A stretch of 64,000 bases of DNA, from NCBI GenBank assembly GCA_963727625.1, contig CAVSHR010000002.1, forward strand, positions 384,001 to 448,000, written 5' to 3'. The DNA comes from an uncultured delta proteobacterium. GTDB taxonomy: Bacteria > Desulfobacterota > Binatia > UBA9968. Shown in pieces: positions 1 to 12,110 of this stretch. The notes below the pieces were generated by a model. That model was not told the DNA's origin. It saw only the letters and a program-made list of their open reading frames with translations, and did not search any database. Position 1 is the first letter of the stretch; each line of letters begins with the position of its first letter. The position numbers and the translations under genes were made by a program.

Positions 1-156
1 AAGTCGCGAGTCGAGGCTCTCTTTTCTGAAATATCGCATCTCGACGGGTTCTCTGTTGCAGATGCGCTCGACCGAATTCGAACTACGGGTTGCGAATAAA
101 TGTGATACCTCTCTCGCTCGTTATTCGCATGCCTCGCGCTTTGAAGTCTCCACTTG

Positions 157-876
157 CTAATGGGTGTCATCCTCCACCCAGGTTTTCTTTCCATAATAGC
201 CGCGCCGACTCGCGGTCATGACGAATTTTTGGAATTGCCGGTCATCTCGGTACTTAGCCATATCGTATCGCTCGTAGTGGGTCATCTCATCTACCTCTCG
301 CCGCGGCCGAGCCGGAATGGGGCGACTGGCATAGCCCAGTGGGATGAGGTGATAAATTCTAAGCGGCTCCGGAACTCCGAGTAGAACTTTCAGCAGGGTT
401 TCCATATAGACCGAGCTAGCGTCGCTAACATACTGGGTTGCCAAGCCGAGGGAGGTAGCCGCGAGATGAATTAACAATGTGGCGCTGGCCAGGCCTGTGT
501 AGAAATGAGAATCGGCTTTGTCCAACATGGTCCTGACGGGATAGGTCTCTTTCACCCTGGGATCGCCCAAGATCATGATATGAATCGGCGCATGCCGAAA
601 GCCGTCGCCGGTCATCTTAGCGTCCCCCCGCACCGCCATTTCCATCTCCTTTTTGTGCTCCTGCTGTTTGAGGAAGATGTCGGCGATTTGATGACGCGTG
701 TTCTCGTCGCGGATAACGATGAACTCCCAGGGTTGGCCGTTGCCTCCCGATGGAGCCCACCGGGCGCATTCGAGAATCTTTTGGACCATTTCGTCAGGAA
801 CATCCTTTGTCTTATCGTACCCGCGGATACTTCTCCGGTCGGCCGCCAGCTCCGTCAGAGCGTCAATGGTCATCAT
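157..876 (-). CDS. Nitroreductase family protein (FMN-dependent)
   Basis: RRSIRGY and ARWAPSGGNGQPWEF motifs; C-terminal LIPLGY; GGGAGG RBS before ATG at 876. Confidence 0.9.
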   Translation of the reverse strand: MMTIDALTELAADRRSIRGYDKTKDVPDEMVQKILECARWAPSGGNGQPWEFIVIRDENTRHQIADIFLKQQEHKKEMEMAVRGDAKMTGDGFRHAPIHIMILGDPRVKETYPVRTMLDKADSHFYTGLASATLLIHLAATSLGLATQYVSDASSVYMETLLKVLLGVPEPLRIYHLIPLGYASRPIPARPRREVDEMTHYERYDMAKYRDDRQFQKFVMTASRRGYYGKKTWVEDDTH

Positions 877-903
877 AGAAACCTCCCTTGGCAACTTATC
901 AAT

Positions 904-1647
904 TTAGCGTTTCTTGCGCTTTAGCGTGAGGCTGTAGCTGAAGATGTCGCTCCGGTAAAATCCCAACGTGAGCAGCAATAAATTCTTTCTGTGGAAATAA
1001 TATCTCTTGACAAAAAGTACCGGTGAGCCCGGCGAGATCCCCAGATAGGATGCCGCGTCGTCGTCGGCGAGTTTTGCTCCAACCAGATGCTTCACGTCAC
1101 TGATCGTAATAGGCAACACGGACTCGATGGCACTGGAAAGAGGCAGCGTGAGCAAGCTTCGCGGAGAGAGCTTAGTCGCGACCCCTGTCGGGACGTAGGA
1201 ATGTACATATGCCAGAGCTTGCCCGCGCGCCAATCTCGTCCGCGTTATCCGTGTTATCGTATCCCCTTCGGACAGGTCAAATTCTCTTCGTATGTTTTCC
1301 GTTGGCTTGAGATTCTCCGTCCGAAGAAGCTTGAAACTCGTGCCCTCTAGATTCAGCGTGACTAGAGTTTCCGCTTCGATCTCCAAGTTGATTGCTTGAT
1401 TGACCGGTCCGCTCCAGCTCACAAAAGTGCCCTTGGCGCGCTCGCGCCGGACGAGTCCCTCCTGAGCCAGTTGGCCCAGCGCTTGACGCACGGTGATGAC
1501 GCTCACGCCCAGGTGCCGGGCAAGATCCAATTCGCCAGGGAGCTGAAAGCCTCGACTCCATGTTCCGGAAAGAATGTTGTCGCGGATCTCCGTCATGACT
1601 TTGAAATAGAGCGGCACGGGAGAGCCCGATCTTTTGGCGAGGCGCAT
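904..1647 (-). CDS. GntR family (HutC/UTRA) transcriptional regulator
   Basis: PLYFKV..LPGELDLARHLGVSVITVRQAL..GLVRRERAKGTFV wHTH plus UTRA-like C-terminus. Confidence 0.92.
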   Translation of the reverse strand: MRLAKRSGSPVPLYFKVMTEIRDNILSGTWSRGFQLPGELDLARHLGVSVITVRQALGQLAQEGLVRRERAKGTFVSWSGPVNQAINLEIEAETLVTLNLEGTSFKLLRTENLKPTENIRREFDLSEGDTITRITRTRLARGQALAYVHSYVPTGVATKLSPRSLLTLPLSSAIESVLPITISDVKHLVGAKLADDDAASYLGISPGSPVLFVKRYYFHRKNLLLLTLGFYRSDIFSYSLTLKRKKR

Positions 1648-1761
1648 GTCGGTGACCTATAATTCGCCGAGAGCGGTCAATTGGCGGGATCCTCCGGCGA
1701 GTGTTTTGCGATCTTAAACCATCAAAGCTCAAACTCTCGATTCAGCCGCTGACCCCTAGAC

Positions 1762-2253
1762 CTACGCACTCTGAGCCTTTCTCTTCTTGAAGAACTGGAT
1801 ATGGCTCAAGGCGTCGGCGGCAACGATGCGCCCGATGGGGCCGATGCTGTACGAGGCATCGCAGACCTTTCTGTCCGAGTCGAGGATGAAATTCGTCGCG
1901 TGAATGATCTTTCTGCGCTCTTCCCAAAAGGCACCGATCTTGTCGGCGTCTCTCGGCACTTCGAGGCCATAGGCCGCGGGAAAGGTAAGCTGCAATTTTT
2001 CTACGGTCTCTTTCGCTTTGTCGAGGGGGTCGACGGATAGGGCGACGACGTCGACATTTTCTTTTTTGAACTCTTCGATATGCGATTGGTAGTCGGCTAA
2101 CTGCCGCATGCAGTACGGTCACCAACTGCCGCGATAAAAGATGAGAACCGCATATTCACCCGTGAGGTCCCGGGGAATTCGGACAGTTCGCCCGTCGACG
2201 GTTTGAACTTCATATTCAGGGAAAAGGTCGCCAGAGTTGAGTTGTCGTGCCAT
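1762..2253 (-). CDS. Peroxiredoxin-like (AhpC/TSA/redoxin) selenoprotein, UxxC; in-frame TGA at 2121-2119
   Basis: GGAGGG-ATG at 2253 gives MARQLNSGDLFPEYEVQTVDGRTVRIPRDLTGEYAVLIFYRGSW-TGA-PYCMRQLADYQ..., in frame with ORF 1762..2109; family motif is FYRGxWCPYC. Confidence 0.9.
2094..2118 (-). promoter_or_regulatory. Putative SECIS of the Prx-like gene
   Basis: CGGC-AGUUA-GCCG; loop starts 17 nt after UGA, same register and AG-start loop as the AhpD SECIS hairpins; stem only 4 bp. Confidence 0.55.
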
Positions 2254-2552
2254 ATGCCCTCCGTGAGAAGTTAGTGGTCAAACTTCGATATCACGCACCG
2301 TTGCAACATCATTACACAAACTTCGGGTTAAACTGCGTTGTTGTCATCGGTTCGGTTGGCCGCGTATGTTGACTGCTTATATGATTAGTAGTAGGAGGTC
2401 AATTGGTTTGCAGCGCCGGCGCGAGCGCGGTTTCGTCGAGCGCGCCGGCGCCGAATCGCCGCCGATCACGACCGAGGCAAGCTTGAACGAAAGAAGCTCG
2501 CCGCGATTACGGGCAATGACGGTTTCGCGTCGAAAACGGAAAAGGCAGGGCC

Positions 2553-2849
2553 ATGATTGATCTTTACTACTGGACCACGCCGAACGGTCACAAAATCACG
2601 ATCTTTCTCGAAGAGGCGGCGCTGCCCTATTCGATCGCCGACATGGCCAGCTATCCCTGGATCGTGCCCCATGAACGGCATAAGCAAAAGCTCGACGAGT
2701 TTTCGAACTTGAATCGCTGGTTTCTGGCCATCGGGCGGCGACCCGCCGTGCAGCGCGCCTATGAATTGGCAAAAACGATCAACACGAAGCCGACGGTCAA
2801 CGAGGATTCGAAGTCCATCCTTTTTGGGCAAGGGAGGCGCTCGGTATAA
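2553..2849 (+). pseudogene. Internally deleted glutathione S-transferase (YfcG/YghU-like)
   Basis: N-terminal MIDLYYWTTPNGHKITIFLEEAALPY joined directly to C-terminal SIADMASYPWI..RPAVQRAY; most of the GST body is missing. Confidence 0.8.
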
Positions 2850-2939
2850 GTGTGGTGGGTTTGGAATCCACCTGTCTTCGACAACCGCCCGCCCGAAGCC
2901 GCAAGCTAAGCTTAGTCTGAGCCGAAAGGAGGAAGTTCG

Positions 2940-3611
2940 ATGCCGTGGATAAAAATTATACCCGAGCATGAGGCCGAGGGTGAGCTGAAAGAAGTCTATC
3001 GAAAGATAAAAAAACAACGCCAGGATGAGAAGATCAATCAAGATCGTGACGCAGGCCCCGGCGGCCCGCCCGTGAGCCCGCCGATGTTGCACAGCCTCAA
3101 TCCCAAAGCCATGTGGCACACCGCCGAGCTTATGTGGGAGATCATGCGCGGTGAGTCGCGTCTGACCACGGTGCAGCGCGAGATGATCGCTACGGTGACC
3201 TCGGCGACGCTGCACTGCCGCTTTTGAACCGTCGCCCACGCAGAGTTTCTGCGTCAGGAAGGCGGCGACGACCTGACGGCGGAGCAGGTTAAAGACGATT
3301 GGCGGCAAATGGAGTTGAGCGGAGCCGAATACGCCATGTTGGAATTTGCCGAAAAGCTCACGCTCACGCCGAGCAATATGCGCGAAACGGACGTGCAAAA
3401 ATTACACGATGCCGGCTGGACGGATCGCGACATCCTCGATATCGTCCATGTTTGCGCCTATTTTAATTTTCGCGTGCGCGTGGTCGACGGTCTTGGCCTG
3501 GAAGTCGCCGATTGGCAAGTCGAGCGCGCCCGCGCCGGTGCCGCGCGGGCGGCAGAAATCGCGAAAGAGCGCGGTGTGACGATGCCGGCCGATCCCTGGA
3601 AAGTACGTTGA
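2940..3611 (+). CDS. AhpD/carboxymuconolactone decarboxylase-like selenoprotein 1 (CRFU); TGA at 3225-3227
   Basis: REMIATVTSATLHCRF-TGA-TVAHAEFLRQ continues in frame into ORF 3309..3611 (FAEKLT..AYFNFRVRVVDGLG). Confidence 0.92.
3228..3270 (+). promoter_or_regulatory. Putative SECIS (AhpD-1)
   Basis: Upper stem ACGCAG(3238-43)/CTGCGT(3249-54), loop AGTTT; lower stem CGTCGCC/GGCGACG. Confidence 0.75.
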
Positions 3612-3621
3612 GGATTGCATC

Positions 3622-4269
3622 ATGAGCTTCATCAAAGTCGTTCGCGAATCGGAGGCGACCGGCGAGCTTCAGGAAGTTTACGAGCGGACGCTCAGCCGAT
3701 TGAGCCCTTCGGTGCGCCAGCGCCGCGGCGACAAGCTGCCGCCCATCGTCAGGATTTTCAGTCTCTGCCCGGCGCTGCTCGAAGCGCGGGTCGGTTTCGA
3801 CAAGGGCATCTATCGCCCCGGCCATTCCGGTTTGGGCCGGCGCAAGGAGGAGCTCATCGCCACGCAGGTGGCGGCGCTGAGCGGCTGCCGGTTTTGAGGC
3901 ATCGGCCACGGAGAGTTTCTCCGTGTCGACGGCAAAATGGCGGTGGAGGAAGTCGCCAAAGTGATCTCCAACTGGCGCGAGGCGGATCTGGACGAACAGG
4001 AGAAGGCCATGCTCGCGTTCACGGAAAAATTCACCCTCACGCCGAGTCAGATCACAGACGCCGATATCGAGGCGCTGCGCCGGGCGGGATTCGGCGAGGA
4101 GCAAATACTTTCCATCGCCCTGGGCGCCGGTTATCGAAACTGGGTGGATCGCATCGCCGATCTGCTCGGCGTCGAAGAGGAAAAATTCGACTTCCCCGAG
4201 GAAATCTTGAAAGCTTTCGGGGTAACGCGCGAGCAGCTTCAAACTTCGCTCTACGGGGATGACCGATGA
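3622..4269 (+). CDS. AhpD-like selenoprotein 2 (CRFU); TGA at 3895-3897
   Basis: KEELIATQVAALSGCRF-TGA-GIGHGEFLRVDGK continues in frame into ORF 3937..4269. Confidence 0.92.
3898..3929 (+). promoter_or_regulatory. Putative SECIS (AhpD-2)
   Basis: ACGGAG(3908-13)/CTCCGT(3919-24), loop AGTTT; extension TCGGC/GTCGA. Confidence 0.75.
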
Positions 4270-4718
4270 GCCGCTTGCAAATGGCCGCGGGAAAGAAACT
4301 CGAAAACTTGCTCGGCGCGGCGCCGGGCGCGCTTGAAGCTGACAGCGCGATGCGCACCCTGCTGATCGATCAATTGACACCGCGACTCTACAGTTTGATC
4401 GGCGTTGTGGTCGCCGGTTGTCTGCGTTGCGAAAAGTTCGTCGAAGCTCTGCGCGGGCCGCTGGACAATACTTTTGTTGCTCAAGCCGCGCGTGATTGGC
4501 GCGCGCTTGAACTCACGACGGTGGAAAAGGCAGTGCTGGCCTACGCGGAAAAAGGCACCATGGACGAGGCTTCGGTGCGCAAAGGGGAGATCGACGAGCT
4601 GCGCGCAGCCGGTCTTAGCGATCGAGACGTGTTATTGACCGCCACCGCGATCGCCTATCACAACTATTCGATTCGCATGGCGGCGGCGTTCGACGTTCTA
4701 CCGAGTGCGGGTGAATGA
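4266..4718 (+). CDS. Degenerate AhpD/CMD-fold protein
   Basis: DWRALELTTVEKAVLAYAEK..LRAAGLSDRDV..AYHNYSIR matches the C-halves of the neighbours; ATGA overlap with the upstream gene. Confidence 0.85.
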   Translation: MSRLQMAAGKKLENLLGAAPGALEADSAMRTLLIDQLTPRLYSLIGVVVAGCLRCEKFVEALRGPLDNTFVAQAARDWRALELTTVEKAVLAYAEKGTMDEASVRKGEIDELRAAGLSDRDVLLTATAIAYHNYSIRMAAAFDVLPSAGE

Positions 4719-4748
4719 CCTAAAACCGAAAAGGAAGGATATTCCTAA

Positions 4749-5654
4749 ATGCGAGGCATAACTCCCAGACGAGAGCAGGGCATGGCCGATCCGGTGTTGG
4801 CCGAGATGGTTCATGCTACGGGGGCGACGGAGTCGCGCCACTACGCGGCGGTCAAGCCGACCATCCAAGCCTATCGCGCCAGTTGGGTGAAGCTCGCACC
4901 CTATCGAGATGGTCCCGTCAATTCGAATCGGGTGGCGGTCGACGATCCGGTGGCGATGACCGCTCAGGTCAAGGCAAAAGCATCGGCGTTGGGCGCCAAC
5001 CTGGTCGGGGTCTGTCGTTTGCAGCCGCATATGATCGATCTCGGTTCGGAATTGCCGCATGAATTCGTCATCGCGTGCTGCGTGGCGGAGGATTATGAAA
5101 AAGTCACTCAAGGGCCGGATGCGGTCGAAGAAGAAGCCATGCGGACCTATGCGAAATGCACCGAGATCGCCACGGATCTGGCCGCCTACGTGCGCGACCT
5201 GGGCTATCCCGCCATCGCCCATCACAACGGCGCCAGCGAAGTCCAGGCGATCCCGATTTTCTACCAGGTGGGCTTCGGCGAGCTGGGCCGGCACGGCAGT
5301 CTGATCAACGAGAAATACGGCGCGAGCTTCCGCCCGGGATTCGTGACCACGGACCTGCCGCTGGTGGAAGACCATCCGCGGGAATTCGGCGTGCAGGACT
5401 TCTGCATGACCTGCAACGTCTGCCAGCGCAACTGCCCGGGCGACGCGATACCGCAGGATCATGTCGTCACCCACGGCATCAAACGCTGGCTGATCGATCT
5501 GGAGAAATGCTACCCCTACTCGCGCTTGCGCGAAGAGTACTGTCATCTCTGCGTCGACGCCTGTCCGTACATCGTGAAGTCCTATCCCGAAACCTACAAA
5601 GCCTTCATGAAAGAGCGCAAGCAAGTGGGCTACAAAACGCCGAAGACCTATTGA
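4749..5654 (+). CDS. Reductive dehalogenase/epoxyqueuosine reductase-like cobalamin and 2x[4Fe-4S] protein, no signal peptide
   Basis: LGANLVG, LGYPA, GFGELGRHGSLINEKYG, VTTDLPL, CMTCNVCQRNCP and C-x10-CHLCVDACP. Confidence 0.85.
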   Translation: MRGITPRREQGMADPVLAEMVHATGATESRHYAAVKPTIQAYRASWVKLAPYRDGPVNSNRVAVDDPVAMTAQVKAKASALGANLVGVCRLQPHMIDLGSELPHEFVIACCVAEDYEKVTQGPDAVEEEAMRTYAKCTEIATDLAAYVRDLGYPAIAHHNGASEVQAIPIFYQVGFGELGRHGSLINEKYGASFRPGFVTTDLPLVEDHPREFGVQDFCMTCNVCQRNCPGDAIPQDHVVTHGIKRWLIDLEKCYPYSRLREEYCHLCVDACPYIVKSYPETYKAFMKERKQVGYKTPKTY

Positions 5655-5660
5655 ACTTTT

Positions 5661-5870
5661 ATGGAAAAACTCTACGTCAACGAAATCGGCCCCGATGGCC
5701 ACGTGAGCACCGCAGGCTTGTTCTATTCGCTGGCCGAGGCGCAAAGGATCGTCGAAATGCTGCGCGCCAATCCCGAGCGAGCGGGCTATCGGTATGAAAT
5801 CGTCGAGGCGGTGCGGCATACCTTAACCGAGAAGCAGGCGAATCCGACCGCGACCGCGCAGAAGGAGTGA
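5661..5870 (+). CDS. Small hypothetical protein within the operon
   Basis: 69 aa; fills the gap between flanking genes and overlaps the next start (GTGA); host-like codons. Confidence 0.6.
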   Translation: MEKLYVNEIGPDGHVSTAGLFYSLAEAQRIVEMLRANPERAGYRYEIVEAVRHTLTEKQANPTATAQKE

Positions 5871-6424
5871 CCATGCCCTATATCAAAACCGTGCCGCCGG
5901 CCGAGGCCACCGGCAAGCTCAAGGAAGTTTACGAGTCCGGCTCCGGCCCGTCCGCGGCGCGCGGCAAGGTGTCGATGATCCGCCAGGTGCAAAGCCTCAA
6001 CACTGACAACCTCGCCGCCTGGCGCGCGCTCGACGTGTCGATCATGCGCGGCGAGTCGCGCATCACCCGGCGCCAGCGCGAGATGATCGCCACGGCGGTG
6101 TCGTCGACCAATCATTGCAGCTATTGAATGACCGCCCACGGAGAGGCTCTCCGTACCGAATCCAATGACGACCCGCTGGTCGAAGGCATCAAGCAGGATT
6201 ACACCCGACTGGATCTGCCGCCCGCCGAGCGCGCGATGCTCGACTACGCTGTCAAACTAACGGTGGCGCCGTCGACGGCGAATGAAGCGGATATCGAGAA
6301 CCTACGCGCCCACGGTTTCGATGATCGCGATATCTTGGACATCGTTTACGTCATTTGCCTTTATAACTTCAACGACCGCATGGCGGACGCCACCGGTATT
6401 ACCGGGCATGATTTTTTTAAGTGA
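5867..6424 (+). CDS. AhpD-like selenoprotein 3 (CSYU); TGA at 6125-6127
   Basis: REMIATAVSSTNHCSY-TGA-MTAHGEALR; ORFs 5867..6127 and 6128..6424 abut in frame (start may be ATG 5873). Confidence 0.92.
6128..6154 (+). promoter_or_regulatory. Putative SECIS (AhpD-3)
   Basis: ACGGAG(6138-43)/CTCCGT(6149-54), loop AGGCT. Confidence 0.72.
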
Positions 6425-6469
6425 GTCATTTATTCACCGAGCGTCGCACTCGGTAAGATTGGAGAAAGC

Positions 6470-7015
6470 ATGAGCAAGTCGCCAGGGAAGATCGATCGCG
6501 CAGCGTTTCGCGAGGTGCATAAACAGCAGCAAGAGCGGGCCAAGCAAGGCCCGGAAGGATACACAACGACAACACGAGCTGTGATCCGGCTCATTGAAGG
6601 TCAATTGAAAGAAGCCCGCATCGGCGAATATACCATCCAGTGCGACGAGGCGAAGTCGCGCAAGGGCGGCGGCAAGGCGCCTTCGCCGCTGCAGTACTTC
6701 GTCGCGGCGACGGGATTTTGAATGTTCAGTCAACTGACGCGGTACGCGTCGCAACTGGACATCGAGATCGAAGACGCCGAGATGGACATTCGCATGACCT
6801 ACGACACCCGCGGCAAGCTGCTGCTCGCGGACGTGCATCCGGGCTGCCGCGAGCTGACCTACGTATTCAAGATCAAGAGCTCGGCGCCGTCGGAGAAGGT
6901 TCAGGAGATGCTGCGGCTGATCGAAAAAGGCTGCCACACGATCAATTCTTTGAAAATCCCGGTGCCGGTGGCCGGAAAGTTGATTCACAACGGTCAGGAA
7001 ATCGCCGCGCCGTAA
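6470..7015 (+). CDS. OsmC/Ohr-like selenoprotein; TGA at 6719-6721
   Basis: DEAKSRKGGGKAPSPLQYFVAATGF-TGA-MFSQL...EKGCHTINSL; TGA replaces the first OsmC Cys, second Cys retained. Confidence 0.92.
6722..6762 (+). promoter_or_regulatory. Putative SECIS (OsmC)
   Basis: Lower stem ATGTTCAGT/ACTGGACAT; upper stem GACGCG/CGCGTC with GTA loop. Confidence 0.75.
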
Positions 7016-7079
7016 AACTTAGCCAGACGCAATTGAAATTCTCTGTTGCCTCGGACTTTAGGGAATCGGCACATGATGC

Positions 7080-7158
7080 CCCTCGCAAAGGCGCAAAGAC
7101 GCCAAGTTTGGAGAAGTACGAAAGAGTTTTCTTTGCGCGCTTAGCGCCTTGGCGAGGG
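7080..7158. repeat. REP-like imperfect palindrome
   Basis: CCCTCGCAAAGGCGCAAAGACGCCAAG ... CTTTGCGCGCTTAGCGCCTTGGCGAGGG. Confidence 0.6.
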
Positions 7159-7241
7159 AATGAGTCTTGAACTCAATCTTTTAGGCCTCTCGGACGGAAG
7201 ATCCAAGGAGCGAGTTAAAACTGGCTCAGAAGGAAGTATTC

Positions 7242-8027
7242 ATGATTGAGCTCTACCACAACGACATGTCGGTCTGCGCCCAGAAGGTGCGCTTCGCCCT
7301 CGCGGAGAAAAAACTTTCATGGGACGGCCATCACATGAATCTCCGCGCCGGTGATCAGCAAAAGCCGGAATATTTAAAGCTCAATCCCAACGCGGTGGTG
7401 CCGACGCTGGTGGATGACGGCACGGTGATCATCGAGTCCACGGTGATCAACGAGTATCTCGACGACGCCTATCCCGAACCGAGACTCAAGCCGGCGGACG
7501 CCGCCGGACGCGCGCGCATGCGGCTCTGGACCAAGCAACTCGACGAAGGCGTGCACGCGGCTACCAGCGTGGTCAGCTCGGCGATCGCGTTTCGCTATCA
7601 GAAGCTCGCCATCGGCATGGAAGCCCTCGAAGAATTTCACAAGAAAATGCCCGACCCGGTGAAGCGGGAGAAGAGCTGGGAGAATGTCACCAAAGGCGTC
7701 GAATCGCGTTTCTTTCCCGAAGCGATCATGCGCTTTGAAAAGCTGCTCGCCGACATGGAAACAACTCTGGGAGATTCGCCATGGCTCGCCGGCAACGAAT
7801 TTTCGCTCGCGGATATCGGTTTCGCGCCCTACATCACCCGGCTCGATCACTTGCAATTGCAGTTTCTCTGGGACAAGCGGCCGCATATCCCCGACTGGTA
7901 CGATCGCCTGCGCGAGCGGCGGGGTTACACCGAAGCGCTGGAAAAATGGTTCAATCCGAAATATCTGCCGCTAATGAAAGAAAAGGGGCTGGAAGCTCGC
8001 GACCGAGTCAAAGAGATCGTCGGTTAG
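7242..8027 (+). CDS. Glutathione S-transferase family protein
   Basis: LYHNDMSVCAQKVRFAL, LNPNAVVPTL, IESTVINEYLD, WLAGNEFSLADI. Confidence 0.93.
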   Translation: MIELYHNDMSVCAQKVRFALAEKKLSWDGHHMNLRAGDQQKPEYLKLNPNAVVPTLVDDGTVIIESTVINEYLDDAYPEPRLKPADAAGRARMRLWTKQLDEGVHAATSVVSSAIAFRYQKLAIGMEALEEFHKKMPDPVKREKSWENVTKGVESRFFPEAIMRFEKLLADMETTLGDSPWLAGNEFSLADIGFAPYITRLDHLQLQFLWDKRPHIPDWYDRLRERRGYTEALEKWFNPKYLPLMKEKGLEARDRVKEIVG

Positions 8028-8143
8028 GGGATCAGTCATTAAATTACGACGAACGAGTCACGGAAGGATAAACTCTCCTGGCCGCTCAAGTTGGCCAGAC
8101 TTCAGCTCTCATTAACGGAACGGCGCTGGAAGGCGCAACCTCC

Positions 8144-8497
8144 TCATGGCTGAATGGTCTCGACGAACCCCTCTGTCGGCACTTCATGCCCTAAGCCTGA
8201 TTCTCGGGCTCCGTGGTAGATAAGATCCGCTAGCGCAGTAAATTGCGCGCCCACACCGGTACTGTTGAGGAAGAGGGTGCGTTGCTCGCGGCCTGCTCTA
8301 CCGTTTATCTTTCCCGCGACCAGCTCGCCTAGATCAGGAAATTTGTTCCAGTCGAGATCGCGCGGTGGATGATCGCGCATGACAAATCCATACTGCTTTT
8401 CCATCGAAGAAAAGTCGGTTGAAACGTATTTATGCTCCTTCTCACGAGTATGGAAGACCACCACATCGGCCTGTGCGAAACAATCGCGTAGAATCTT
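8144..8497 (-). pseudogene. C-terminal fragment of an ornithine cyclodeaminase/mu-crystallin family protein
   Basis: ADVVV..DLGELVAGKINGR..RTLFLNSTGVGAQFTA..ARESGLG; 5' part cut off at the Y1-element end. Confidence 0.75.
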
Positions 8498-8506
8498 GGG
8501 AGAATC

Positions 8507-9557
8507 TTGGTGTCAGACTTATTATTTAATTATTTATTTTGCCGGCTCGCAACTCTTTTAATAAGCCGCCAATATTTTTACTCAGATCGGCTTCCTGAGC
8601 CAACCTCTCTCGCAGTCGCTTTAGTCCTAAACTCAAGCTCACCTGATCACGGCCATATCGTGCTGCTACCTCGTTGAGCTTGATAGTCCCCAATTCCTGC
8701 CCGAGGTACGCTACCACCGCGCGCACAAATGACCCTCGATGTTCTTTGGTTCGTAAATGCAGAAGTTCCGCTGCGTATTCATACCGTCGAGATACCGCAC
8801 TCTCGATGGTGCTCAGATCCACTCGTATCTTCGGCGGCGAATCAAGGTCAAGATGACGATTGATTTTATCGACAAACTGATCGTCTCCTAAAAACCTTTG
8901 CTCTTTGATATCGTAAAAATCATCGCGATGTCCCGAGCCAATGCCGTCCGACACAAACTCCTTATACTTGCGGCGCGCACGCGCCATGTCGGGCGCGAAC
9001 TGCTCTAAAACCCAGTCCGTTTGGACCACGGCCGTTCCCTTCGTGGCGCCACTGTTGAGATAGTCGCGGTGGCTGCTCCAGGGATAATCCGCCGGATCGG
9101 CTACAATCTCGGACCGAACCGGATTGAGATGAAGATAGCGTACCAGTTCGAGAAGATAAGAATCTCGATCACAGAGGATGCCTTTGTAGCGTCCCTGGAA
9201 TAGGTGGCCAACAAGCTTGTACTTGCGATTGAAGTACAAGGTGTAGCTTTGCTGCAAGCCCTGCATGATCTTGGCTAGCGGGTACTTTGCGACTTGCATC
9301 AAAAGATGCACGTGGTTGGTCATCAAGACGTAAGCATAAAGTTGAAATTGGTAGCGTCTGCCGTACTGGTTGAGCAACTTCAGATAGCGCCGCCGATCGG
9401 TATCGGCGCGAAAAATGATCTGGCGCTGGTTGCCGCGACAAATCACATGGTAAAGCGCACCAGGGTAGTGCACTCTCGGCTTTCTGGCCACGGATTTTGG
9501 AATATCACGACAGCAACGCTGAATGCAAGAAATAAATATATAAATGTCTGACACCAA
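8507..9557 (-). mobile_element. Y1/RAYT-type element bounded by 12-bp inverted repeats
   Basis: TTGGTGTCAGAC (8507-8518) and GTCTGACACCAA (9546-9557) flank the transposase. Confidence 0.75.
8526..9491 (-). CDS. REP-associated-type tyrosine (Y1 HUH) transposase with C-terminal DnaA_C-like HTH
   Basis: MARKPRVHYPGALYHVICRGN, AYVLMTNHVHL (HUH), GHLFQGRYK, YLHLNPVR, YPWSSH. Confidence 0.92.
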   Translation of the reverse strand: MARKPRVHYPGALYHVICRGNQRQIIFRADTDRRRYLKLLNQYGRRYQFQLYAYVLMTNHVHLLMQVAKYPLAKIMQGLQQSYTLYFNRKYKLVGHLFQGRYKGILCDRDSYLLELVRYLHLNPVRSEIVADPADYPWSSHRDYLNSGATKGTAVVQTDWVLEQFAPDMARARRKYKEFVSDGIGSGHRDDFYDIKEQRFLGDDQFVDKINRHLDLDSPPKIRVDLSTIESAVSRRYEYAAELLHLRTKEHRGSFVRAVVAYLGQELGTIKLNEVAARYGRDQVSLSLGLKRLRERLAQEADLSKNIGGLLKELRAGKINN

Positions 9558-9585
9558 TTTCCCACCATTTCCCCAATTTCCCCAA

Positions 9586-9774
9586 TTCTTTCACAAGATG
9601 AATGACGTACAGGATCGGAGCGTGAAAAACCGCACCAAGGATTAGCGTGAGATTGAGGAGCGGATAGCGTGACGGCAATACGTCGGATGCAATCCAGATG
9701 AGGAGGATGATCGCTGCGAAGTTCCACCAACTCATCCCGGTCATGAACGCGCGACGAACTGTGTCAATGGTCAT
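9586..9774 (-). pseudogene. Truncated small membrane protein
   Basis: Hydrophobic WWNFAAIILLIWI..LTLILGAVFHAPILYVIHL running into the Y1 end repeats. Confidence 0.4.
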
Positions 9775-9898
9775 GGGTCTTTTGCTTAGCTCTGTGCGCA
9801 CACACAAAGTCACCGGCCGGGGGCCGTTGTGAGCATACCGCCATTTACCTAGGGTCCATGTTCTTAAGCCAAGAGAAAAGTAGTTTTCTCAGTCCGCT

Positions 9899-10723
9899 TT
9901 AGGCATTAGGTTTTACGGCTACCACTTCGATCAAGCTGACTCGTTCCTCATCAAGATTACGATGCAGATTGTAGGCCTTGGTTTTGATATCGTTTCCGAC
10001 TAGCAGGTGTACGCCCAGTATTGGCAGAACCGGCTCGCCGATGGGTTCCGCCACATTGGCAAAGGCCTGCTGTGCAAGATCCGTTTTGTCATTCGAAACT
10101 TTAATATCAAAACCGGCGGATGTTACGACATCGCAGAATGACTCTGGCGGTATCAGAAAGCTCATGGAACTGTCTTGCGCCCACGGCACCGGAAAATACG
10201 GCGGTGTGTTTTTATTGCCGCACACCTCGTACAAAACAGCACGCGCGCCTGGTTTGAGCACACGATAAGTTTCCTTTAGCCACGACAGCTTGTCCTCGAC
10301 GTTCATGTTCATCTGGAGTGACCAGGCGCCGTCAAAGGAATTGTCGTCAAACGGCAAGTCGAGCGCACTCGTCGCATGGAACTTTACCCGCTCCTGCATA
10401 TTGAGTAATTGCGTCAATCTTTCTGCGGTTTCAATGTATTCTTCACTCAAATCAATACCGGTCACACGACATCCGGTTTGATGCGACAAGCGACGGGTGG
10501 AGCCGCCGATTCCGCAACCGACATCCAGGATATGCATCTCTGGTGTAAAGCCGGCAAGTTTAATCAGCTCTTTGGTTGCGGTGTCACCGCGGATATGAAA
10601 TTCGTCAACGGGCTGAAGATCATCCAGTGTGATTTTCGACAAATCCTTGCCAAGTTTATTAAGGCCATCAATGATCCTGTTGTACAAATCATTCGGCGAG
10701 TAATAACTGTGAATGTTTTTCAT
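9899..10723 (-). CDS. Class I SAM-dependent methyltransferase
   Basis: DEFHIRG, ILDVGCGIGG, GIDLS, LPFDDNSFD, RVLKPG; lower GC than host genes. Confidence 0.92.
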   Translation of the reverse strand: MKNIHSYYSPNDLYNRIIDGLNKLGKDLSKITLDDLQPVDEFHIRGDTATKELIKLAGFTPEMHILDVGCGIGGSTRRLSHQTGCRVTGIDLSEEYIETAERLTQLLNMQERVKFHATSALDLPFDDNSFDGAWSLQMNMNVEDKLSWLKETYRVLKPGARAVLYEVCGNKNTPPYFPVPWAQDSSMSFLIPPESFCDVVTSAGFDIKVSNDKTDLAQQAFANVAEPIGEPVLPILGVHLLVGNDIKTKAYNLHRNLDEERVSLIEVVAVKPNA

Positions 10724-10952
10724 ATCTTTAATCCTGATCAGTTAGTTGTTTAAACAGCTTGTCGCAGCAATCCATGCTTTTCATAACCATGAGGCTAATT
10801 AAAGGGGACATTCTGAATTTCTGTTTCTTTTCTCGTCAACCTTGTCGTCTTAGGCTTGCGCCTAAACCATTGCGTCTAGATCTGTGCCCGCCCGGTCCTC
10901 TTGCTCCCCCTCCCGTTTCCGCAGTAGAGATTGAAGGGGAAGGGGCCGGACT

Positions 10953-12110
10953 ATGAAATTCTCAATCTTCATGATGCCGCTGCACCATCCGACGGAAAAT
11001 CCGTCGTTGGCCTTCGATCGCGACATTTCATTGATCGAGTATACCGACGAGCTCGGCTACGACGAGTTCTTCATCGGCGAGCATCATTCGGGCGGGTGGG
11101 AGACCATGCCGGCGCCGGAGATGGCGCTGGCGAAGGCGTCAGCGCGCGCGCACCGCATCCGCCTCGGGACTTCGGTCATAAGCGCGCCGTTTCATCATCC
11201 CTTTCATGTCGCCGAGCGCATGGCGTTCCTCGACCATTTGACTCGCGGTCGCGCTATTCTCGGCGTCGGACCTTGCGCCCTGGTCACCGACAAAAAACTT
11301 TTCGGCCTGCCTAATGAAAAACTGTACCCGATGCTCGCTGAGTCGGTGGATATCATCGTTCGCCTTTTGGAATCTCCTGATCCCATCGACTACGAAGGCA
11401 AATTCTGGTCTTTCAAGCAGATGCGCTTGCAGTTGCGCTCGTACCAGCAACCGCGCATGCCGCTGGCGATCGCTTCGTCGGGTAATGCGATCAGTTTGGA
11501 GCTGGCGGGCAAACACGGCATGTTATTCCTGTCGCCGGCGGGTAAAAACATCCGAAACAATCAATCAAAGGCCGAGCAATGGAACAAAGTCGAGGCGATT
11601 GCGGCGAAACATGGCACGGCGACGTCGCGGGACAATTGGCGCATCGCTACCTGCGTTTATCTGGCCGACAGTAAGGAGAAAGCGTGGCGCGACGTCGGGG
11701 CGGCAATCGATCGCGACAAGGAGTACTTCTTCTCGATCGGCTTGAAGGCGCCCTATGAAGCCTATCCCGGCCAGCCGGCCGGTGAAATTACCGCGCGCTC
11801 CGGAGCCGACCGGCGCGACTGGATCATCGGCACGCCGGACGACGCCATCGGTCACATCGAGCGCATGCAGGCGGAGACCGGGGGTTTCGGCGGGCTGATG
11901 CTGGCGACGCATGAATGGGCGAGCACGGAGAAACTGCGCCGCTCCTATGAGTTGTTCGCGCGCTACGTGATGCCGCACTTTCGCGGCCATACGCTGGGCT
12001 ACCGCGACGAGTGGCGGCGCATTCAAGAGGCGGCGGCCAACGGCGGCTTCAAATCCGACGACCCGAAGAGACCAAGCAATCTCGTGCTCAGGGACGGGTC
12101 GAGCAAGTGA
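10953..12110 (+). CDS. LLM-class flavin-dependent monooxygenase
   Basis: LGYDEFFIGEHH, IRLGTSVISAPFHHP, LDHLTRGR..GVG, SYELFARYVMP. Confidence 0.93.
   Translation: MKFSIFMMPLHHPTENPSLAFDRDISLIEYTDELGYDEFFIGEHHSGGWETMPAPEMALAKASARAHRIRLGTSVISAPFHHPFHVAERMAFLDHLTRGRAILGVGPCALVTDKKLFGLPNEKLYPMLAESVDIIVRLLESPDPIDYEGKFWSFKQMRLQLRSYQQPRMPLAIASSGNAISLELAGKHGMLFLSPAGKNIRNNQSKAEQWNKVEAIAAKHGTATSRDNWRIATCVYLADSKEKAWRDVGAAIDRDKEYFFSIGLKAPYEAYPGQPAGEITARSGADRRDWIIGTPDDAIGHIERMQAETGGFGGLMLATHEWASTEKLRRSYELFARYVMPHFRGHTLGYRDEWRRIQEAAANGGFKSDDPKRPSNLVLRDGSSK

Follow-up and report, generated by a model that had tools for sequence, protein, structure and literature searches.

A minimal RdhA-like protein and its constant 69-residue neighbour in a selenoprotein gene cluster of an uncultured Binatia-type bacterium

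Can a B12-dependent reductase be served by selenoproteins encoded at its side? The question is raised by a gene series at positions 2940-8027 of the stretch analysed here, hereafter the window, which comprises 64,000 nucleotides (nt) of an uncultured delta proteobacterium of the Binatia (lineage UBA9968; assembly GCA_963727625.1, contig CAVSHR010000002.1, positions 384,001 to 448,000). On its + strand, genes for three AhpD-like proteins (AhpD1, AhpD2 and AhpD3), a homologue of the reductive dehalogenase RdhA (hereafter Rdh-like), a 69-amino acid (aa) protein encoded by a small open reading frame (sORF), a fourth AhpD-like protein (AhpD4), an OsmC-like protein and a glutathione S-transferase (GST) follow one another with successive gaps of 10, -4, 30, 6, 2, 45 and 226 nt. 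An earlier annotation made from the letters alone (the sequence-only reading) had proposed that the Rdh-like protein is a cobalamin reductase coupled to selenol carriers or acceptors; the gene order, strand and tight spacing on which it built were as described when coordinates and gaps were re-read. The comparative data presented below lead to another answer: the invariant partner of the Rdh-like enzyme is the 69-aa ORF, not AhpD, and the selenoproteins, joined to the enzyme within one clade, are not its obligate partners.

Genes were called over positions 1-12000 of the window with TGA read as selenocysteine (Sec, U) and checked against the nucleotide sequence, and families were assigned by Pfam and NCBIfam profile searches. 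The two genes at the centre of the analysis are the following.

4749..5654, + strand: RdhA-like corrinoid/2x[4Fe-4S] reductase of the simplified cytosolic type, 301 aa; TIGR02486, 119.4 bits
5661..5870, + strand: 69-aa partner ORF (sORF), directly 3' of the Rdh-like gene; no Pfam family

Among the class-III B12 enzymes, the Rdh-like protein belongs by its sequence on the side of RdhA, in a minimal cytoplasmic form. Compared with solved structures, it was by far closest to NpRdhA (4RAS, E 2.9e-51), followed by PceA (E 1.8e-23), with QueG at E 0.024; it thus does not side with canonical QueG, the outcome that the sequence-only reading had named as telling against its proposal, and a separate canonical QueG (393.8 bits) is encoded on contig C4 of the same genome. 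The profile scores are low on both sides of the superfamily: 119.4 bits against the reductive dehalogenase model TIGR02486 (residues 105-277), below its cut-off of 160.35, and 40.3 bits against the QueG model TIGR00276 (a weak match over residues 164-240), below its cut-off of 200. An AlphaFold2 (AF2) model built from an alignment of 63 sequences (predicted local distance difference test, pLDDT, 91.2) matched NpRdhA in Foldseek with E 5.8e-20 and a template modelling (TM) score of 0.73 and PceA with a TM score of 0.64, and, more weakly, QueG (E 1.4e-8, TM 0.49) and MMACHC (E 1.2e-3); the fold predicted for the protein includes the corrinoid-binding core.

Both [4Fe-4S] motifs and the GELGRHG and TDLPL segments, as claimed earlier, are present. 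The cluster cysteines (C219/C222/C225/C229 and C254/C265/C268/C272) are invariant in the 63 sequences, and the C-terminal ferredoxin-like domain matches Fer4_7 with 34 bits. Equally invariant are Y134, which in a structure-sequence alignment pairs with the tyrosine of the NpRdhA segment MRAYMRG, and R195, aligned with the position at which 4RAS and the K488Q variant 6ZY0 differ. These positions correspond to what we take to be the catalytic pair of a tyrosine and a basic residue, Tyr426/Lys488 in NpRdhA and Tyr246/Arg305 in PceA. For PceA, passages of PMC10008544 describe Tyr246 as catalytic. From these features we infer cobalamin binding and dehalogenase-type chemistry.

The protein would work in the cytoplasm. 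No assigned gene of the locus reaches a 19-residue Kyte-Doolittle mean of 1.6 (maximum 1.47), and therefore the locus has no region of the twin-arginine translocation (TAT) type and no free-standing RdhB-like anchor gene; hydrophobic frames only overlap assigned genes in other frames, and no TAT model was among the NCBIfam matches. Hydropathy and profiles thus agree with the earlier claim of an enzyme lacking both TAT signal and RdhB, and the locus differs in this from respiratory RdhA/RdhB systems, which are recognised by that signal and by an anchor gene. Since CobS was found and CbiC was not found in this 98%-complete genome, the data suggest cobamide salvage instead of de novo synthesis. 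The genome holds two further RdhA-like paralogues. One of them (L077, C2:607606-611364) encodes 438 aa with no obvious signal peptide. The ORF behind it (206 aa) is similar to the RdhA core alone and ends at a TGA; the next ORF, as read from its sequence, fuses a 2x[4Fe-4S] ferredoxin motif to a GlcG/DUF336-like domain, a second copy of which lies upstream.

A species-level scan with one genome per species gave 64 Rdh-like loci, mostly from Candidatus Binatia metagenome-assembled genomes (MAGs), and in 58 of them the sORF follows immediately on the Rdh-like gene, as mapped by tblastn. Three of the six loci without it have no usable downstream sequence (L013, L060, L064), and three have downstream sequence with no match (L027, L056, L057); in L044 the sORF lies 2.1 kb from the Rdh-like gene. 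The first ~48 residues are strongly conserved, and the spacing between the two genes is typically 5-10 nt. In the window the two share one reading frame, with the TGA stop of the Rdh-like gene between them. A fusion of the two by Sec read-through was considered and is ruled out, as stop codon and frame both vary among relatives (TGA 27, TAG 23 and TAA 12 in 62 gene ends; 21, 25 and 13 for the three frame offsets in 59 pairs), and for the same reason we regard the Rdh-like gene and the sORF as two genes. The sequence-only reading had listed the 69-aa ORF in the gene order; its role as the constant partner had escaped notice.

Database searches returned little for this small protein. An AF2 model gave a beta-beta-alpha-beta core over residues 1-50 (core pLDDT ~89), for which Foldseek found nothing in the PDB at E <=0.001 (best match PaaB, E 0.2). 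Modelled together with the Rdh-like protein, with our own alignments supplied, it reached a complex score of 0.87 (three runs: 0.00, 0.88, 0.87), while the best of three controls scored 0.00. The partner had a pLDDT of 57-77 in the complex, and the runs agreed in at least 20% of contacts, a mark that 116 of 157 solved complexes and 2 of 215 mismatched pairs attain. The predicted interface involves residues 1-6, 15-19, 93 and 98-99 of the Rdh-like protein, together with the hairpin 237-252 between its cluster motifs. Binding of the two proteins is supported by this prediction, which falls short of a demonstration.

More remote relatives of the Rdh-like protein (44-57% identity, mostly alphaproteobacterial) carry a different accessory domain of ~110 aa in the place of the sORF. 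It ends in '...PLRIMTFSRGDWE...' and contains an invariant W...PLR..FSRG.WE motif. The domain is found as a separate ORF ~70-110 nt downstream of the Rdh-like gene (L083, L086, L093, L097, L102, L105, L124 and L056), fused to the C-terminus of the Rdh-like protein (L085, L092, L094, L103, L112 and P0125) or fused to its N-terminus (P0124 and P0128), and this occurrence as a separate gene and as fusions at both ends is a Rosetta-stone pattern. Aligned by hhalign, the sORF and the accessory domain gave a probability of 0.3% over 12 columns, which does not show homology. For both, Pfam held no family at threshold (best matches Tt1218-like, E 0.035, and DUF7336, E 0.067), and for the sORF the ESM Atlas returned only its own Binatota 'hypothetical protein' clusters.

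Around this pair stand the genes that had suggested selenol coupling, assigned with cut-offs of 81.8 bits for TIGR01926 ('peroxidase-related enzyme') and 95 bits for NF041052, and a GST gene.

2940..3611, + strand: AhpD-like selenoprotein 1, 223 aa, CRFUxxxH, Sec codon 3225-3227, hairpin 3238-3254; TIGR01926, 127.9 bits
3622..4269, + strand: AhpD-like selenoprotein 2, 215 aa, CRFUxxxH, Sec codon 3895-3897, hairpin 3908-3924; TIGR01926, 94.5 bits
4266..4718, + strand: truncated AhpD-like protein 3, 150 aa, CLRC, no Sec; TIGR01926, 47.7 bits, C-terminal half only
5873..6424, + strand: AhpD-like selenoprotein 4, 183 aa, CSYUxxxH, Sec codon 6125-6127, hairpin 6138-6154; TIGR01926, 141.1 bits
6470..7015, + strand: OsmC-like selenoprotein, 181 aa, GFUMFS, Sec codon 6719-6721, hairpin 6735-6751; NF041052 (OsmC_like_Se), 145 bits
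7242..8027, + strand: glutathione S-transferase family protein, 261 aa; Pfam GST_N and GST_C

AhpD1, AhpD2 and AhpD4, each with a CxxUxxxH motif, pass the TIGR01926 cut-off, as OsmC passes that of NF041052. AhpD3, whose start overlaps the stop of AhpD2 (ATGA), falls below the cut-off and has no Pfam match; its N-terminus is shortened and the histidine of CxxCxxxH is gone, so that the description of it as degenerate was apt as to truncation and lost histidine, but not as to the CxxC (CLRC), which it retains.

The in-frame TGAs behave as selenocysteine codons, a conclusion that we draw from their conservation in orthologues, from frozen hairpins behind them and from the presence of SelB (397.5 bits, above cut-off) in the genome. 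The TGA was kept in all orthologues of at least 60% identity (AhpD1 12/12, AhpD2 8/8, AhpD4 20/20, OsmC 9/9 and the divergently encoded Prx-like protein, described below, 4/4), and homology to the family models continues across every TGA; homologues with cysteine in the Sec column exist as well (L222, L268). Each of the three Sec-encoding AhpD genes has a 7-base-pair hairpin that begins 13 nt past the UGA. Its bases are near-invariant and the flanking wobble bases variable among the 10, 8 and 17 distinct orthologue sequences of AhpD1, AhpD2 and AhpD4 (35 in all); in AhpD4, an 18-nt hairpin stretch is almost unchanged in the 17 distinct sequences while the wobble bases beside it differ. Between paralogues the hairpin shows a compensatory difference, GCAGAG/CUGCGU in AhpD1 and GGAGAG/CUCCGU in AhpD2 and AhpD4. 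The OsmC gene has a hairpin of its own after the TGA, and no convincing one follows the TGA of the Prx gene. An Rfam scan of positions 1-9000 found no family of selenocysteine insertion sequences (SECIS), its sole match being a chance-level Phage_DGR (E 0.14). Elsewhere in the genome, in-frame TGAs recur in additional Prx-like and OsmC-like homologues, on C4, C5, C6 and C9 and in another part of C2, and a GST homologue with a TGA is found at C4:74027-73509; the organism appears to be rich in selenoproteins.

How far the selenoprotein genes belong to the Rdh-like gene can be judged from a tree of 98 full-length Rdh-like sequences (the window, L001-L064 and L082-L124; matches of fewer than 271 residues or with stops were excluded), on which a row was called linked if any tblastn match to AhpD1-4 lay within 3.5 kb. 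All linked rows fall within one clade of 36 rows (Shimodaira-Hasegawa-like approximate likelihood ratio test, SH-aLRT, 96), in which 27 of the 33 scorable rows have AhpD and three more rows are not scorable. Its sister clade of 20 rows, complete Binatia chromosomes among them, lacks AhpD in all 19 scorable rows and carries the sORF in 19 of 20, L044 not being counted because of its distance. AhpD was also found in 0 of the 34 scorable rows, mostly alphaproteobacterial, outside the sORF-bearing clade. The linkage label changes six times on the tree, three of the changes being forced by well-supported branches. Recurrent AhpD/OsmC linkage, on which the sequence-only reading had staked its case, is thus real across many species-level genomes, but it is bound to one Binatia-type clade.

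Within that clade the linkage outlasts rearrangement. AhpD1 stands directly before the Rdh-like gene in L011, L015, L030 and L055, the last of which has a GST gene directly after the sORF, and L016 carries a 2.5-kb insertion. The gap between sORF and AhpD4 is 2 nt in the window and 5 nt in many loci, and the unit of Rdh-like gene, sORF and AhpD4 is repeated as a block within genomes (L017/L018/L025; L010). L003 (195-2059) has a tandem pair of Rdh-like genes, with 92% and 79% identity to that of the window, of which only the second is followed by sORF and AhpD4. Joined loci often add OsmC(U), GST and the divergent Prx(U), GntR and nitroreductase genes.

Beyond the tree, more distant loci were searched with our own AhpD and OsmC hidden Markov models (HMMs) in six-frame translations with TGA read through. 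Among 75 more distant Rdh-like loci, AhpD occurred in four (L127, L130, L122, L097) and OsmC in one (L130); among 80 RdhA-type loci from many phyla, AhpD occurred in four (L177, L141, L166, L198) and OsmC in three (L141, L192, L196), the two sets having a few places in common (L177 is L127, and L141 is L130). Ten Binatia genomes (~60 Mb) hold 37 TIGR01926 matches (E <=0.001) outside Rdh loci, a background of roughly 0.5 per 80 windows of 10.7 kb, so that AhpD may be weakly enriched near distant Rdh loci, as far as a comparison between our HMMs and TIGR01926, which differ, can suggest. Two of these loci deserve description. In an Acidobacteriota MAG (L130), a mini-Rdh gene is followed after 7 nt by the gene for a 402-aa OsmC-OsmC protein (2473-3681) and, after another 2.6 kb, by a CxxC AhpD-like gene on the opposite strand (about 5300-6079, - strand). 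In a gammaproteobacterial MAG (L198), a 418-aa two-domain AhpD-related selenoprotein (1808-3064; CDFC, then CFYU with an in-frame TGA) is encoded ~520 nt upstream of a 327-aa mini-Rdh protein (3581-4564) on the same strand.

Seen from the AhpD genes, the association is tight at close range and absent at a distance. In the genome of the window, all tblastn matches (E <=1e-6) to AhpD1-4 lie in this cluster, bar one weak match of 74 residues on C5, and in five genomes of the linked clade an Rdh-like gene is found no more than 4 kb from 11 of the 12 TIGR01926 matches above cut-off, with L219 (the same as L263) as the one exception; five complete genomes of the sister clade gave no TIGR01926 match above cut-off. 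A scan with the AhpD alignment returned 74 loci. Twenty-five of them hold AhpD4 orthologues (at least 70% identity), and an Rdh-like gene is present in 20 (six known from the earlier scan and 14 of 19 new ones), that is, in 20 of the 23 scorable loci, L258 and L260 having no upstream sequence. None of the remaining 49 loci (40-47% identity; from Dehalococcoidia, Poribacteria, Cloacimonadota, Acidobacteriota and others) has an Rdh-like gene in the sequence available, a count that is a lower bound for the short Binatia-like MAG contigs L273, L276 and L309; their Sec column reads TGA in 48 and cysteine in one. Sec-AhpD is thus a widespread family that normally works without an Rdh-like gene, and the Rdh-like enzyme with its sORF is an autonomous unit, present with and without selenoproteins. 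Given the sister clade (0/19), the distant RdhA loci (4/75 and 4/80) and the distant AhpD loci (0/49), partnership with the selenoproteins is not obligate for the enzyme. Selenol coupling as it had been stated is not borne out by this clade-bound linkage, in which we saw no sign of electron donation or substrate carrying.

The surroundings of the operon were as the sequence-only reading had described them, with a Prx-like selenoprotein, a GntR-type regulator and a nitroreductase on the - strand, each matching its family profile. The gene list given there is confirmed, with one addition, a GST remnant.

160..897, - strand: nitroreductase family protein, 245 aa, last gene of the divergent arm; PF00881, 107 bits
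907..1650, - strand: GntR/HutC-type regulator with UTRA effector domain, 247 aa; PF00392, 60.9 bits, and PF07702, 78.4 bits
1765..2256, - strand: Prx-like selenoprotein, 163 aa, WUPYC, TGA 2119-2121; PF00578 (AhpC-TSA), 82 bits
2553..2849, + strand: GST remnant, 98 aa, between Prx and AhpD1; NF010579 over residues 1-26, NF008731 over residues 26-78

The GntR gene lies upstream of AhpD genes in eight of the 64 loci (L001, L002, L010, L016, L023, L035, L060, L064), and orthologues of the nitroreductase gene (87-89% identity) adjoin GntR in L016 and L060; against the BluB model the nitroreductase scored 69.7 bits, below the cut-off of 150. The remnant joins the N-terminal 26 residues of a YfcG-type GST to a C-terminal piece across an internal deletion. 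Its two pieces lie ~390 nt apart in L004, as in an intact gene, and a paralogous region of the window's own genome (C7:153594-154288) has both pieces ~380 nt apart. Orthologues of the intact GST gene (85-91% identity) are found downstream in L002, L005, L008, L020, L024 and L035, and in L122 and L123 a GST of 52-62% identity immediately precedes the Rdh-like gene. A promoter and terminator scan of positions 1600-8600 gave eight terminator-like sites for a shuffled expectation of 8.0, and promoter-like sites at 2341-2385, upstream of the GST remnant, which we do not use as evidence. Past the GST gene, a 370-aa ORF (8526-9638, - strand) reads like a Y1-type (REP-associated/IS200-like) transposase, and the GC content falls from ~0.56 to 0.50 beyond 8 kb; the two may mark the edge of an island. 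Locus DNA, as a small share or in part, appears in four soil or marsh metagenome runs of a sequencing-run listing that includes no RNA run.

The explanation that we favour, and to which we give somewhat less than an even chance, is a lineage-specific operon for detoxification or redox stress, built round a two-subunit B12 reductase to which the selenoproteins are accessory. The operon, confined to one lineage, would belong to a Binatia-type soil bacterium and, judging by its position, be regulated by the divergent GntR/UTRA protein. Its core would be a two-subunit cytoplasmic enzyme, formed by the 301-aa RdhA homologue (corrinoid core, two [4Fe-4S] clusters, Tyr134 and Arg195) and by the 69-aa protein, predicted to dock on the beta-hairpin of the ferredoxin domain (237-252) and on the N-terminus of the larger subunit. 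By Co(I) chemistry, a small organic electrophile of the cytoplasm would lose a halide or a comparable leaving group, presumably for detoxification or catabolism and not for respiration. A set of thiol/selenol peroxidase and conjugation proteins (the three AhpD-like selenoproteins, the Cys AhpD remnant, Sec-OsmC, GST and Sec-Prx), probably co-transcribed with the enzyme, would handle peroxides and electrophilic products and might shield oxygen-sensitive cofactors. We liken such a protective role to the precedent of SMUL_1530 in Sulfurospirillum multivorans, as it is presented in passages of PMC4585668.

Several observations weigh against this explanation. The operon has no gene for a ferredoxin, a flavodoxin or a reductase module, the TIGR02486 score below the NCBI cut-off leaves dehalogenase chemistry less than assured, and one of the three complex runs scored 0.00. 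Six of the 33 scorable rows of the linked clade have no AhpD, and three AhpD4 orthologues with adequate upstream or full flanks have no Rdh-like gene (L257, L262, L263). Because the linked rows form a single clade, the AhpD linkage may have been inherited and not selected. In the sister clade, moreover, the neighbours named from ORF translations are dTMP kinase, DNA polymerase III delta', Met-tRNA ligase and pilin, and such a housekeeping setting for the Rdh-like gene and its sORF sits oddly with a niche role in detoxification.

Of the other explanations, the one that survives best supposes no functional link at all: an antioxidant selenoprotein island and the Rdh-sORF pair would have been joined once in the ancestor of the clade and have stayed neighbours. 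This would account for the restriction of every linked locus to a single clade, for the fact that both families are mostly unlinked elsewhere and for the many selenoprotein genes of this genome (C4, C5, C6, C9). It accords poorly with a linkage that survives rearrangements (L011, L015, L030, L055, L016, L003), with genes on one strand whose gaps of 2-45 nt fit one transcript, and with the near absence of TIGR01926 genes from the rest of these genomes, and we consider it unlikely, if still to be reckoned with.

We regard as improbable that the CxxU AhpD selenoproteins are dedicated redox partners of the enzyme, giving electrons or accepting or carrying substrate or product, so that no ferredoxin or NADPH reductase would be needed. 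The tight spacing (the gap between sORF and AhpD4 above all), the duplication of Rdh-like gene, sORF and AhpD4 as a block, the position of TIGR01926-type genes almost only beside the Rdh-like gene, the lack of any other electron-donor gene in the operon and the scattered independent co-occurrences in L198 (CFYU selenoprotein) and L130 (OsmC-OsmC, CxxC AhpD) all speak for such coupling. The sister clade, however, keeps the enzyme and the sORF without a TIGR01926 gene (0/19 rows, 0/5 genomes), distant Sec-AhpD loci lack the Rdh-like gene and distant RdhA-type loci rarely have AhpD; this distribution argues that hand-over by selenoproteins cannot be essential to the enzyme. In addition, thiol and selenol couples are usually not reducing enough for Co(I) formation, and their redox potential is thus unfavourable to the proposal. 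Doubtful to a slightly greater degree is the full form of the idea, a self-contained, selenol-driven B12 cleavage of a C-halogen or C-heteroatom bond that is recycled by thioredoxin or glutathione, does without a ferredoxin/NADPH-reductase module and uses the 69-aa subunit as a docking adaptor for the Fe-S domain.

A class-III B12 enzyme that reduces or deoxygenates an oxidised metabolite, for example an epoxide, within an operon for the repair of oxidative damage has in our view the same small chance as AhpD proteins that are dedicated redox partners. The low dehalogenase score, neighbours that are all of the peroxide or redox type, the housekeeping neighbourhood in the sister clade and the related fold of QueG, which reduces an epoxide, are compatible with it; the protein is nonetheless much nearer to NpRdhA and PceA than to QueG in sequence and fold, the dehalogenase-typical pair of a tyrosine and a basic residue is invariant, and nothing points to a non-halogenated substrate. 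That the protein is a second epoxyqueuosine reductase acting on tRNA, as the label 'epoxyqueuosine reductase' given to many homologues by JGI pipelines and the weak match to the QueG model might suggest, is effectively refuted by the scores reported above and by the canonical QueG on another contig.

Compared with known systems, the Rdh-like protein resembles the catabolic cytosolic enzymes NpRdhA/BhbA, its best match in sequence and fold, in the lack of a TAT signal and of RdhB, in the two [4Fe-4S] motifs, in the conserved tyrosine and in a basic residue at the K488 column. It differs from them in its length (301 aa as against ~700), in the absence of the vestigial N-terminal cobalamin-like domain and of a reductase module, in its separate 69-aa partner, in having arginine instead of lysine at the K488 column and in scoring under the TIGR02486 cut-off. 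QueG shares with it the fold of the class-III B12/[4Fe-4S] superfamily and is a far weaker match than the dehalogenases. The protein fits the description, in passages of PMC12219181, of 'simplified cytosolic' RdhA-like proteins without the vestigial domain, reported from cold-seep metagenomes mainly in Desulfobacterota and Chloroflexota. Those proteins average 395 aa, and their neighbours in main-text passages of that paper are IclR/MarR regulators and beta-oxidation genes, with no selenoproteins or small partner ORF.

There is also a precedent for an AhpD-family gene among those of a reductive dehalogenase. According to passages of PMC4585668, SMUL_1530 of S. multivorans is an AhpD-family CxxCxxxH protein, encoded in the dehalogenase region and detected only in cells grown on tetrachloroethene (PCE), for which the authors propose protection against oxidative stress; the system as presented there is respiratory, with PceA carrying a TAT signal and accompanied by PceB, and has one AhpD, of the Cys type, while OsmC, GST and selenocysteine are absent. 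All five selenoproteins of the window's cluster (three AhpD, one OsmC and one Prx) belong to selenoprotein families catalogued in PMC2398784 and PMC13188914 (AhpD-like TIGR01926 CxxU, OsmC-like and Prx-like UxxC, in the portions of these papers available), where adjacent Prx-like and AhpD-like selenoprotein genes are noted in metagenomic reads. The word 'dehalogenase' occurs in neither paper, and no cluster of five selenoproteins round an RdhA-like gene is described in those portions. The literature searched, which covered few subscription journals and no supplementary tables, held no paper that brings together AhpD or OsmC selenoprotein genes and a homologue of the dehalogenases, none on selenoproteins in Binatia and none on a reductive dehalogenase in Binatota. 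The statement of the sequence-only reading that no such system is described thus holds for the architecture of the operon, but not for its elements, as short cytosolic RdhA-like proteins (PMC12219181, in part of its text) and an AhpD protein in a dehalogenase region (PMC4585668, likewise) are known; all component families are known, and their assembly is undescribed in the literature searched.

Five selenoprotein genes are thus clustered round a minimal cytosolic homologue of the dehalogenases, and multi-selenoprotein operons have been recognised only recently, as passages of PMC13188914 indicate. The locus further reveals an unannotated 69-aa subunit, in the place of which the mostly alphaproteobacterial relatives have a domain of ~110 aa that can be fused to the enzyme, and short RdhA-like enzymes, a widespread group, seem to have a small subunit or domain of this sort. 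As a small soluble enzyme with defined partners, the Rdh-like protein offers a tractable entry to the non-respiratory B12 reductases of abundant uncultured soil bacteria, and, should the selenoproteins feed or complete the reaction, it would represent a new way to drive corrinoid chemistry.

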